The notes: a model not told the origin generated them from the letters alone. Positions 23,351 through 30,188 are shown, counted from the stretch's first letter. The stretch is DNA of 64,000 nucleotides from Rhodospirillales bacterium (GCA_038117205.1 JAYOFL010000003.1:4007-68006), one strand, 5' to 3'. Program-made: numbers and translations.

Positions 23351-26300
23351 ATGAGCATACACGTCGCCCTCCACCACAAGACGAGCTACGTCTACGACCG
23401 TCGCGCCCAGTTGAGCCCGCAGGTCGTCCGCCTCCGCCCGGCACCGCATTGCCGGACACCGGTTATCAGTTACGCGCTGAAGATTTCCCCGGACGGATAC
23501 TTCATCAACTAGCAGCAGGATCCGCACGGCAACTACCAGGCCCGCATCGTCTATCCGGAGCCGGTCCCGCATTTCACGGTAGAGGTCGACCTGGTCGCCG
23601 ATCTGTCGGTGCAGAACCCGTTCGACTTCTTCCTCGAGCCGGACGCGGAGGAGTTTCCGTTCGCCTATTCGGACGATTTGCGCCGAGAACTCGAACCCTA
23701 TCTGGCGGCCGATCCCGCCGGCCCGCTTTTGACGGCGTGGATGAACGCCCTGCCGCCGCGGCAGGGCCGGACGGTCGAATATCTGGTCGAACTCAACCGC
23801 CGTCTGCACGCCGACATCGAATATCTGATCCGCATGGAGCCCGGCGTGCAGTCCTGCGAGGAGACCCTCGGAAGGCGCAAGGGCTCGTGCCGGGATTCCG
23901 GCTGGCTGCTGGTCGAGATTCTGCGGCATCTCGGCTTCGCAGCCCGGTTCGTGTCGGGCTATCTCATCCAGCTCAAGGCCGACGTGAAATCCCTCGACGG
24001 CCCGTCTGGCGCCGAGACCGACTTCACGGACCTGCACGCCTGGACCGAGGTCTATCTGCCGGGCGCCGGCTGGATCGGGCTCGACCCGACGTCGGGCCTG
24101 CTCGCCGGCGAGGGGCACATCCCGCTCGCCGCGACGCCCCGCCCGCAAAGCGCGGCGCCGATCACCGGCGCCGTCGAGAAATGCGAAGTCACGTTCGATT
24201 TCGACATGGCGGTGACGCGCATCCACGAGACGCCGCGTGTCACGCTCCCCTACACCGAGGAACAATGGCAGGCCATCGACCGGCTCGGGCATGCCGTCGA
24301 CGAGGAACTCGCCAAGGGCGACGTCCGCCTGACGCTTGGCGGCGAGCCGACGTTCGTTTCCATCGACCACGTCGACGCGGCGGAATGGAATACGGCCGCC
24401 GTCGGTGAAACCAAGCGCGCGCTCGCCGACGACCTGATCCGCCGGCTGCGCGACAAGTTCGCGCCGGACGGCCTGCTGCACTACGGCCAGGGGAAATGGT
24501 ATCCGGGCGAGCAGCTGCCGCGCTGGGCGTTCGCGCTTTATTGGCGGAACGACGGCGTGCCGCTCTGGCGCGACGTCAACATGATCGCCAAGGAAGACGT
24601 GGACAACGCGCCCGGCATCGAAGCCGCGGAAACCTTCGCGCGCGGCATCGCCCGGCGGCTGGAAATCAACGAGGAGGCGGCGACGCCGGCCTTCGAGGAC
24701 ACCTGGCATTTCCTGGAAAAGGAGCGCCGGCTCCCGGAAAACATGGATCCGACGGACCCCAAGCTCGACGATCCGCTGGAACGTGCCCGCCTGATCCGCG
24801 TTTTCGAGCACGGGCTCAGTCATCCGACCGGCTATGTGCTGCCGGTGCAGCGGTGGAACGCGCGGGACGGCAAGCGCCGCTGGTATAGCGAGCCGTGGTC
24901 GGTCCGCAGCAAGCACCTGGTCCTGATCCCGGGCGATTCGCCGGTCGGCTTCCGGCTGCCGCTGCCGTCGCTGCCGCACATTCCGGAGGTCGACTATCCC
25001 TACGTCATTCCGGCCGATCCGTTCGCCGAACGCGGCGATCTGCCGGAACCCGACGCGATGCGCCAGCCTTACCTGCAAGGCCATGAGCATCCGGCGAGCG
25101 ACCGGCAGACCATAACCGAACAGTCGCTCAAGGGACGGCACGTCCGCGCCGCCATGACCATCGAGCCGCGCGACGGCCGGCTCTGCGTCTTCATGCCGCC
25201 GACCGAAACGCTCGAGGATTACCTCGATCTGATCGCCGCCATCGAGGACGCGGCCGCCGAGACGAAGCTGCCGATCCATATCGAAGGATATTCGCCGCCG
25301 CACGATCCGCGCCTGAACGTCATCAAGGTGACGCCGGACCCGGGCGTCATCGAAGTCAACATCCAGCCGGCGTCGAACTGGCGGGAAATGGTCGAGATCA
25401 CGACCACCATCTACGAGGAAGCGCGGCTCAGCCGCCTCGGCACCGAGAAATTCATGCTCGACGGACGGCACACCGGTACCGGCGGCGGCAATCATGTCGT
25501 CGTCGGCGGCAAGACGCCGACGGACAGCCCGTTCCTGCGCCGGCCCGATCTCCTCCGGGGCCTGATCACCTATTGGCAGCAGCACCCGAGCCTGAGCTAT
25601 CTGTTCTCGGGGCTGTTCATCGGCCCGACCAGTCAGGCGCCGCGCATCGACGAGGCGCGGCACGACGGCCTCTACGAACTCGAGATCGCCTTCAACGAAA
25701 TCCCCGAAGCCGGCGAAGCCTGTCCGCCGTGGCTGATCGACCGGGTTCTCCGCAACATCCTGATCGACGTCAGCGGCAACACGCACCGGACGGAAATCTG
25801 CATCGACAAGCTGTATTCGCCGGACGGTCCGACCGGACGGCTCGGGCTGGTCGAATTCCGCGCCTTCGAGATGCCGCCGCACGCGCGCATGAGCCTGACG
25901 CAGCAGTTGCTGCTGCGCGGCCTGATCGCCCGGTTCTGGAAGACCCCCTATCGCGGACGCCTGACCCGCTGGGGAACCTCGCTGCACAACCGCCTCATGC
26001 TGCCGCACGCGGTGTGGGAGGATTTCGATGGCGTCATCGACGAGATGCGCGACGCCGGCTTCCCGTTTCAAGCCGAATGGTTCGCGCCGCATTTCGAATT
26101 CCGCTTCCCGCGGTACGGATGCGTCCGCTACCGCGGCATCGAGATCGAGCTGCGCCAGGCGCTGGAGCCCTGGCACGTGATGGGCGAGGAAGGCGCCGTC
26201 GGCGGTACCGTCCGGTTCGTCGATTCGTCCGTCGAGCGTCTGCAGGTCCGCGTTACCGGCGCGACCGATGGCCGTTACACGGTCGGCTGCAACGGCTACC

Positions 26301-26644
26301 AGGTGCCGCTCAGCGGCACCGGGGTGCAGGGCGAATCGATTGCCGGCGTCAGGTTCCGCGCCTGGCAGCCCGGCTCGTGCCTGCATCCGACCGTCGGCGT
26401 GCATACGCCGCTGACTTTCGACCTTTGCGATACATGGACCGGCCGCGCTGTCGCCGGCTGCACCTACCACGTCGCGCACCCCGGCGGCCGCAATTTCGAG
26501 CACTTCCCCGTCAATTCCTACGAGGCGGAAAGCCGCCGCCTGGCGCGGTTCTTCGATACCGGCCATTCGCCGGGCAGCGTGCCGCCGCCGACGCCGGTGG
26601 AAAACGCCGAGTTTCCGATGACCCTCGACCTGCGGCGGACATGA
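23351..26644 (+). pseudogene. large transglutaminase-like / DUF2126 (putative amidoligase) protein interrupted by one in-frame TAG at 23510-23512
   Basis: ATG 23351 gives MSIHVALHHKTSYVYDRRAQLSPQVVRLRPAPHCRTPVISYALKISPDGYFIN-stop-QQDPHGNY, in frame with the 1011-aa track ORF. The transglutaminase triad context is present ([31 protein letters not shown]), followed by a long DUF2126-like C-terminus. The full frame is about 1097 codons. Confidence 0.8.
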
Positions 26645-29316: not shown

Positions 29317-30188
29317 TTTACGACGTCAGCCACAAGACGACCTTCAAGTATTCACAAAGCGTTTCGATTTCGCAGCATCTTCTGCATTTGGCGCCCCGGC
29401 CATGCCCGCAACAGGTCTGTCGGCGGCAGGCGCTGATCGTCGAGCCGCCGCCGACCCTCAGCAAGGACGACGTGGATTACTTCGGCAATCCGACCACGTA
29501 TCTGACCGTCGAGGATTCGCACGACGAGTTGGTGATCATGGCGTCGTCGACCGTCGAGGTCCGGCCGATCCCGGCGCCGGCACCGGCGAGCACCGTTCCC
29601 TGGGACGACATTCCGGTTCTGTTGTCGCAGGCCATCGGCCGGGACGAATTGGACGCCTATCAGTTCGCATTCTCGTCGCCGTTCACAGGCTCAAGCAACG
29701 CCGTCACCTACGCACTCGATTCCTTCACGCCCGGCCGGCCGGTCCTGGAAGCCGCGCTCGATCTGATGAGCCGCATCTATCGGGAGTTCAAGTACGAGGG
29801 CGGCGTCACCGACGTCTACACGCCGGTCGACCGTGTGCTGATCGAGCGGCGCGGCGTTTGTCAGGATTTCGCGCACCTGCAGATCGCCTGCATGCGCGGG
29901 CTCGGCCTGCCGGCGCGTTACGTCAGCGGCTATCTGCTGACGCATGCGCCGGAGGGAAAGGAAAAGCTCGTCGGCGCCGACGCGTCGCACGCTTGGCTCG
30001 CGGTCTGGGTACCCGGGCACGGCTGGGTCGATCTCGACCCGACCAACAACCTCATTCCCGGCGACGAGCACATCACCGTCGCTTGGGGCCGGGACTACGG
30101 CGACGTGAGCCCGATCAACGGCCTCGTCATCGGCGGCGGCCGCCATGACATCGACGTCGCCGTCGACGTCCGACCGGTCCGCGGCTGA
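29313..30188 (+). CDS. transglutaminase-family protein (small, Bact_transglu_N plus core)
   Basis: GTG start in a GTGA overlap with the upstream stop. VIYDVSHKTTFKYSQSVSISQHLLHLAPR at the N-terminus, with core GVCQDFAHL and SHAWLAVWVPGHGWVDLDPTNN. The track shows it only as the tail of the spurious ORF 27744-30188. Confidence 0.85.
   Translation: MIYDVSHKTTFKYSQSVSISQHLLHLAPRPCPQQVCRRQALIVEPPPTLSKDDVDYFGNPTTYLTVEDSHDELVIMASSTVEVRPIPAPAPASTVPWDDIPVLLSQAIGRDELDAYQFAFSSPFTGSSNAVTYALDSFTPGRPVLEAALDLMSRIYREFKYEGGVTDVYTPVDRVLIERRGVCQDFAHLQIACMRGLGLPARYVSGYLLTHAPEGKEKLVGADASHAWLAVWVPGHGWVDLDPTNNLIPGDEHITVAWGRDYGDVSPINGLVIGGGRHDIDVAVDVRPVRG

Follow-up and report, generated by a model that had tools for sequence, protein, structure and literature searches.

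Valas and Bourne (2008) as well as Iyer, Abhiman, Burroughs and Aravind (2009) reported an association of ATP-grasp, alpha-E and transglutaminase-like genes, which, according to two later papers that cite these works, they read as a peptide-synthesis or tagging system (PMC6376114, PMC5666114). Here, we describe a member of this family from a Rhodospirillales bacterium (GCA_038117205.1). It is located at positions 23351-30188 of a stretch of 64,000 nucleotides (nt) (JAYOFL010000003.1:4007-68006), which was analysed as a whole and is called the window in the following. An initial annotation, made from the sequence alone, had correctly traced the association to the Aravind group in about 2009 and had ranked the locus as the best candidate in the window for a system of unknown function. 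This ranking is overstated, as thousands of genomes carry members of the family and the locus is a routine copy that is probably damaged. It is a canonical copy of the circularly permuted ATP-grasp / alpha-E / transglutaminase-like amidoligase system of the DUF2126 subtype, i.e., an operon of three genes of which the first fuses a transglutaminase-like module to DUF2126. The system itself is already known by computation and is biochemically uncharacterised, and the present copy is ordinary apart from a stop codon. Taken as a whole, the data are best explained by a canonical amidoligase operon with two ligase/thiol-enzyme pairs, which is impaired here by a TAG at codon 54 of the first gene. We assign this explanation a probability of roughly 60%.

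Among the described relatives, the Anbu operon (Yersinia bercovieri; Pseudomonas putida PP_2685-2688) shares the ATP-grasp, alpha-E and small transglutaminase-like families. Its ATP-grasp protein releases orthophosphate from ATP, and no peptidase activity, complex or substrate of the operon proteins was found in pull-downs and activity tests (PMC6376114). In P. putida, the operon is induced on nitrate as compared with ammonium, which corresponds to induction by nitrogen limitation (PMC8050072). The Anbu operon has ATP-grasp and alpha-E in separate genes, contains an Anbu gene and lacks DUF2126 among the four genes described, whereas in the present operon ATP-grasp and alpha-E are fused, DUF2126 is present, and there is no Anbu gene. 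A cluster of Burkholderia cenocepacia H111 (I35_5080-5083, BCAM1233-1236), which we liken to the present operon by its description, includes a large transglutaminase protein and is among the genes most strongly dependent on NtrC and sigma-54 (PMC5491218). Like the operon of P. putida, it is induced when nitrogen is limiting. Unlike here, ATP-grasp and alpha-E are split in that cluster and the large protein comes last. In marine metagenomes, the domains of the operon co-vary with urea-metabolism domains (PMC3597751).

The operon family is also found in Mycobacterium tuberculosis, Mycobacterium leprae and many rhizobia. Rv2566-Rv2567 of M. tuberculosis are presumably the counterparts of genes 1 and 2 of the present locus. 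Rv2567 (ATP-binding) was expressed to test it as a ligase, and no gamma-aminobutyric acid-trehalose was formed. Rv2569c, a member of the YebA (COG1305) transglutaminase-like group that lies on the opposite strand as judged by its 'c' suffix, was reported to be a broad-specificity protease that cleaves E-cadherin; serine-protease inhibitors block its activity, whereas E-64 and N-ethylmaleimide do not (PMC11081392). ML2678 of M. leprae combines PF08379 with PF09899 as gene 1 does, and a 2024 paper states that no experimental study of it exists. Our literature search (DUF2126, COG2308/2307, DUF403/407, PF09899 and recent work on Anbu) returned no assigned substrate or function in the searchable papers. 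Hence, the initial annotation was right that no substrate or product has been established. Its further statement that there is no phenotype is valid for the operon and needs a partial qualification in view of E-cadherin cleavage by Rv2569c, which is not an operon function.

The three genes of the present locus are co-directional on the + strand, as had been annotated and as is seen by listing of open reading frames (ORFs) and direct translation. As the G+C content of the window is 62-70%, long spurious frames are common. An antisense open frame of 1363 codons (23078-27169, - strand) with an Arg/Ala/Pro-rich translation lies over gene 1 and is most likely a high-G+C shadow ORF rather than a gene. 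Genes 1-3 are real genes because their Pfam scores, all far above the cut-offs, leave no doubt. The domain calls that had been made for the three genes are each borne out by this profile search. There was no match for any of the three proteins among the PADLOC anti-phage models and no family match in NCBIfam.

Gene 1 (23351-26644, + strand) extends over 1097 codons from an ATG start to a TGA end and encodes a transglutaminase-like module followed by a DUF2126 putative amidoligase. With the stop at codon 54 read as Trp, the Pfam domains are Bact_transglu_N at residues 6-83, Transglut_core at 143-246 and DUF2126 at 276-1095. In the transglutaminase core (23777-24088, + strand), the codons of the catalytic Cys (23888-23890), His (24035-24037) and Asp (24083-24085) were verified. 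The motifs quoted in the initial annotation, including GSCRDSGW, are present in the translation, and the triad (C94, H143 and D159 in the numbering of the longest open frame of 1011 amino acids) is invariant in 56 homologues. The DUF2126 region (24176-26635, + strand), a putative ATP-dependent carboxylate-amine ligase, is a full-length match to PF09899 with 1359 bits and 826/826 model positions covered.

Gene 2 (26734-29316, + strand) starts with ATG, is preceded at 8 nt by GGAG, and encodes 860 amino acids, with the ATP-grasp module at 27016-28155 and the alpha-E module at 28300-29265. It is identical to a public protein (P0001). The description as an 860-residue ATP-grasp/alpha-E fusion is thus accurate: CP_ATPgrasp_2 (PF14403) scores 491 bits, PF04174 347 bits and, in the same polypeptide, Alpha-E (PF04168) 239 bits. 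Residues 31-500 match 3N6X at E 8.7e-86, a structural-genomics entry labelled 'putative glutathionylspermidine synthase', where the name is only a label. The alpha-E part contains the ER-type motifs LGRYAER and GRRVER, of which the positions W/G/R/Y/R and G/R/R/R are invariant in 62 sequences, and Arg dominates the invariant residues.

Gene 3 (29313-30188, + strand) encodes a small transglutaminase-like protein of 291 amino acids with Bact_transglu_N and Transglut_core domains, and its GTG start overlaps the TGA of gene 2 as GTGA, as had been noted. The intact Cys-His-Asp context ascribed to it is present with C183 (29859), H226 (29988) and D242 (30036); this triad is kept in at least 97% of 68 orthologues, and 3ISR matches the protein at E 7e-14. 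One could read the small transglutaminase-like protein as a secreted or cell-wall protease, as claimed for Rv2569c, and the operon as serving extracellular proteolysis. We give very little credence to this explanation. The inhibitor profile of Rv2569c fits a Cys-His-Asp fold poorly, visual inspection of the three translations showed no N-terminal stretch resembling a signal peptide, and free-living bacteria of soil and water commonly carry the operon.

To place the locus in its family, one genome per species was scanned for relatives of gene 1, which gave at least 596 loci, of which the best 80 were kept. These belong to Alphaproteobacteria (Rhodospirillales, Rhizobium, Agrobacterium, Sinorhizobium, Mesorhizobium, Bosea, Azospirillum), Betaproteobacteria (Azonexus, Dechloromonas, Zoogloea), Gammaproteobacteria (Steroidobacterales), Nitrospirales and Acidobacteriota. 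The order 1-2-3 is kept in 66 of the 71 loci that have enough sequence past gene 1, and gene 2 is one uninterrupted fused ORF in 65 of these 66. In addition, the best 120 homologues of gene 2 are all about 830-880 amino acids long with both domains in one protein. Operons of this type thus normally have the fusion, and it is not the unusual feature for which it had been taken. An apparent split of gene 2 in nine loci was rejected, as eight of the cases are alignment overruns past the true stop and only one locus (L003) is truly disrupted. Clustering of 924 flanking ORFs showed no conserved fourth gene: any one flanking family is shared by at most 16 of about 80 loci, and no family occupies a fixed position. 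As no flanking family is widely common, the three-gene unit is self-contained.

Compared with individual three-gene operons (L001, Agrobacterium, Sinorhizobium fredii, Mesorhizobium, Azospirillum, Nitrospirales), the genes, their order and the gene 2 fusion are alike, and with L001, a Rhodospirillales metagenome contig, the 4-nt overlap of genes 2 and 3 is shared as well. Identities are 74-84% to the nearest and 37-67% to the distant operons. The difference lies in gene 1, which is intact in the other operons (1097-1105 amino acids) and carries the TAG at codon 54 in the present copy. Separate ATP-grasp and alpha-E genes do occur as second gene sets beside some related loci. Such a second split pair adjoins the operon in L001, L007, L009-L013, L015, L016, L063 and L065, and in L001 (13477-16842) it is followed by a glutaminase gene. 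There is no second ATP-grasp/alpha-E copy in the window. A two-gene form was seen in Sinorhizobium meliloti (L107, CP090106.1 3170776-3174077), where a fused ATP-grasp/alpha-E protein of 802 amino acids is accompanied by a transglutaminase family protein; NCBI names the pair 'circularly permuted type 2 ATP-grasp protein' and 'transglutaminase family protein', and no gene 1 or DUF2126 gene is found within 6 kb on either side.

The family is large, since an exhaustive search with gene 1 alone yielded 2,577 clusters (50% identity) at E 1e-30 or better. If its function were found, thousands of genes could be annotated, and a nitrogen-stress pathway new to science might emerge. The present locus adds little toward this function, being a typical copy with an ordinary fusion and an interrupted first gene. 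Agrobacterium, Sinorhizobium, Mesorhizobium and Azospirillum, among other tractable carriers of intact copies, are better starting points.

The interruption of gene 1 is an in-frame TAG (23510-23512, + strand) that replaces a conserved Trp codon at position 54 in the context TTC ATC AAC TAG CAG CAG (FIN*QQDP). It was overlooked in the initial annotation, in which gene 1 figured as a continuous frame of about 1097 codons; the longest open frame has 1011 amino acids. A change from TGG to TAG is one G-to-A transition. The nearest relatives all read FINWQQDPHG in this region, and the homologous codon in 81 related loci specifies W (TGG) in 56, L in 23, V in 1 and I in 1, with a stop in 0/81. Likewise, in a degenerate scan of metagenome contigs, 22/22 matches to N-[W/stop]-QQDPHGNYQA have TGG, so that no second instance of the amber allele was found there. 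With no stop in the 81 loci or the 22 metagenome matches, the lesion is a single G-to-A change that was seen nowhere else. Recoding or suppression of the amber codon was rejected, as TAG normally terminates a GntR-family gene in the window, no tRNA gene is located in the window, and two related truncated alleles carry TAA and not TAG.

Because the TAG interrupts gene 1, the system is probably impaired. The longest open remnant (23609-26644, + strand; GTG start) lacks Bact_transglu_N and keeps the Cys-His-Asp core together with DUF2126; a public protein of 1011 amino acids (P0121) is 100% identical to it. At best, gene 1 would be expressed from this internal start as a product without the N-terminal domain of 86 residues. 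Efficient re-initiation at the GTG, 97 nt past the stop, is doubtful; no well-placed Shine-Dalgarno sequence was seen before it when the region was read by eye. In the worst case, gene 1 is a null allele and the mutation also acts in a polar manner on genes 2 and 3; the approximately 3.1 kb of message left without translation could have such an effect.

Gene 1 is also interrupted in three relatives of the same clade. L083, which is 84% identical and syntenic with the window, has a TAA at codon 24 (Q24; L083:9812-9814), L084 (77% identical) has a TAA at codon 55 (Q55; L084:36-38), and L003 (78% identical) has a stop at Trp185 beside the catalytic Cys motif in addition to a frameshift in gene 2. 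All of these nonsense codons are within the transglutaminase module. In about 40 other cluster representatives of the clade, gene 1 is intact. The independent nonsense codons could indicate recurrent inactivation; this sample is biased, since L083 and L084 were noticed as N-terminal truncations that keep a high score and mid-gene stops would fall outside the best 120 gene 1 matches, and no enrichment is claimed. A split GlpD in L083 was considered as a sign of in-frame stops throughout that genome and rejected, as it is a scaffold gap of N's.

From the amber codon and the lesions in L083, L084 and L003, one could also conclude that the locus is a decaying pseudogene cluster without current function in the present genome. 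We regard this as possible though rather unlikely, as there is one lesion only: the remaining 1043 codons of gene 1 and the whole of genes 2 and 3 are intact and about 65-84% identical to relatives. Moreover, the exhaustive gene 1 search contains natural DUF2126 proteins of about 770-840 amino acids that start at or past the end of the transglutaminase core, and a truncated product might therefore still work.

Structure prediction and Foldseek searches, which had been proposed in the initial annotation, were made for the open frame of gene 1 and for the alpha-E domain. The AlphaFold2 model of the 1011-residue frame of gene 1 is of moderate quality (predicted local distance difference test (pLDDT) 71, predicted template modelling score (pTM) 0.65). 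For its transglutaminase core, 3ISR was found as a match (E 1.5e-5). Matches of the DUF2126 part are weak throughout (E 0.05-0.3, probability 0.4-0.84, template modelling (TM) score 0.25-0.36 by target), namely 4S17, 8FBP, 1TT4, 5DM3, 9N4X, 9QUR and 7CQL. The kinds of enzyme among them are coherent and comprise several glutamine synthetases, the YbdK/GCS2-type 1TT4 and a gamma-glutamylmethylamide synthetase. This agrees with the Pfam label 'putative amidoligase', without proving it. In our reading, the motifs GGEPTF and VEFRAFEMPP resemble the metal- and substrate-binding strands of glutamine synthetase. Profile searches against PDB and Pfam gave no sequence-level link of DUF2126 to a solved structure or another family. 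The AlphaFold2 model of alpha-E is a confident one (pLDDT 86, pTM 0.85) and all-helical with 15 helices. Foldseek returned no significant match for it in the PDB (best E 0.22, TM 0.27), and its sequence has no link to a solved structure or another Pfam family. Hence, solved relatives exist for two parts of the operon only, the ATP-grasp module (3N6X) and the small transglutaminase-like protein (3ISR), and for neither DUF2126 nor alpha-E.

Based on these folds, the unit would consist of two ATP-dependent carboxylate-amine ligases, DUF2126 and the permuted ATP-grasp module. Each ligase would have as its partner a Cys-His-Asp enzyme of papain fold, which acts on the same kind of amide bond by hydrolysis or transfer. 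The thiol partner of DUF2126 is likely the module fused to it in gene 1, and the partner of the ATP-grasp module would be gene 3, which appears translationally coupled to gene 2. The Arg-rich, all-helical alpha-E module would be an obligate partner of ATP-grasp and probably acts in substrate binding or regulation. The proposed pairing would resemble glutathionylspermidine synthetase/amidase, in which the reaction of an ATP-dependent amide ligase is reversed by a papain-like thiol amidase paired with it. That enzyme differs in that its amidase has a CHAP fold, whereas the fold is transglutaminase-like here, and in that it has no counterpart of alpha-E or DUF2126. Nothing indicates that the present operon uses glutathione or spermidine.

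The same set of enzymes may be interpreted by analogy as a system for tagging of proteins or peptides, in which the ligases attach an amino acid or a peptide as a tag to target proteins in a manner similar to pupylation and the transglutaminase-like enzymes remove or trim it. Of the enzymes in the unit, two are amide-forming and two resemble thiol peptidases, and pupylation uses glutamine synthetase-fold ligases. A tagging function was also proposed by Iyer et al. (2009), as cited for the sibling Anbu operon in PMC6376114 and PMC5666114. However, no conserved gene of 90 amino acids or more that could encode a tag or precursor lies beside the operon among the 924 clustered flanking ORFs. No Anbu or other proteasome-like gene was seen among the operon neighbours, although no dedicated search for proteasome families was made across the whole window, and pull-downs and activity tests with the Anbu operon gave no complexes or substrates (PMC6376114). 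We therefore consider tagging to be improbable.

Under the proposed mechanism of two ligase/thiol-enzyme pairs, a small molecule or peptide derived from amino acids is the probable substrate, handled in nitrogen scavenging or storage, because related operons belong to nitrogen-limitation regulons. The glutaminase gene beside the second ATP-grasp/alpha-E pair of L001 is counted for this nitrogen link. Nitrogen storage could also be imagined in the form of a reserve polyamide similar to cyanophycin or poly-gamma-glutamate, with the two ligase folds building backbone and side chain and the thiol enzymes depolymerising the product. Such a role would fit the combination of two ligases that differ in fold, which is also found in cyanophycin synthetase, and the control of related operons by nitrogen limitation. 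Yet a polymer would be expected in nitrogen excess and not in limitation, and none has ever been reported from the many carriers of the operon. As a pure analogy, a reserve polyamide is very unlikely.

Several points weigh against an amidoligase operon impaired by codon 54 as the explanation of the locus. The mechanism is read from fold and context only, and a substrate, product or phenotype is known for no member of the family. DUF2126 is linked to glutamine synthetase only weakly, through matches at E 0.05-0.3 of a model with mean pLDDT 71 that have no equivalent at the sequence level. The 86 codons before the internal GTG are 73-83% identical to relatives, compared with 77-79% for the rest of gene 1. 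As the N-terminal part is as conserved as the rest, the nonsense change would be recent, a minority allele or an assembly error. In addition, no sigma-54 type promoter was found before gene 1 (no match at ≤2 mismatches in 23121-23350), and thus nitrogen control in the present organism is unsupported. Finally, the neighbours of the operon are phosphate, phosphonate and glycerol-3-phosphate genes and not nitrogen genes.

The impaired-operon explanation may also be extended. In this version, the unit would make and reverse an amide-linked metabolite or peptide conjugate in nitrogen limitation, using a glutamine synthetase-fold ligase and an ATP-grasp ligase with an alpha-E module of unsolved fold, and the clade would repeatedly knock out the transglutaminase module of gene 1 (codons 24, 54, 55 and 185) as costly or dispensable. 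In this full form, we consider it a speculative and rather improbable proposal.

Upstream of gene 1, the spacer to the divergent Na/Pi-cotransporter gene contains a perfect 16-bp palindrome, TGTAAGATATCTTACA, at 23150-23165. The 20-nt block AATGTAAGATATCTTACAAA and the following TTTCGCAA are identical in the syntenic locus L083, in which the rest of the spacer has diverged. Judged from this pattern, the palindrome is likely a candidate operator for one or both of the divergent genes. A scan for sigma-70 consensus promoters upstream of gene 1 gave no match. The divergent gene encodes an Na/Pi-cotransporter/PhoU protein, and beyond it follow GlpR (a DeoR/GlpR regulator), GlpD, a HAD hydrolase and a phosphonate ATP-binding cassette (ABC) transporter. 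This block (14325-23120) suggests a phosphate and glycerol-3-phosphate context; it is mostly syntenic with L083, and the synteny is not kept in more distant loci.

Downstream of the operon, a convergent short-chain dehydrogenase gene lies 7 nt past gene 3 and is followed by a CMD-family gene. Further on, the frame 31339-32049 (+ strand) matches ABC-type ATPase models only with about its last 85 residues (residues 151-214 of 236). It is located directly upstream of an HlyD-family gene (32094-33458) and appears to be what a truncation has left of a type I secretion ABC transporter.

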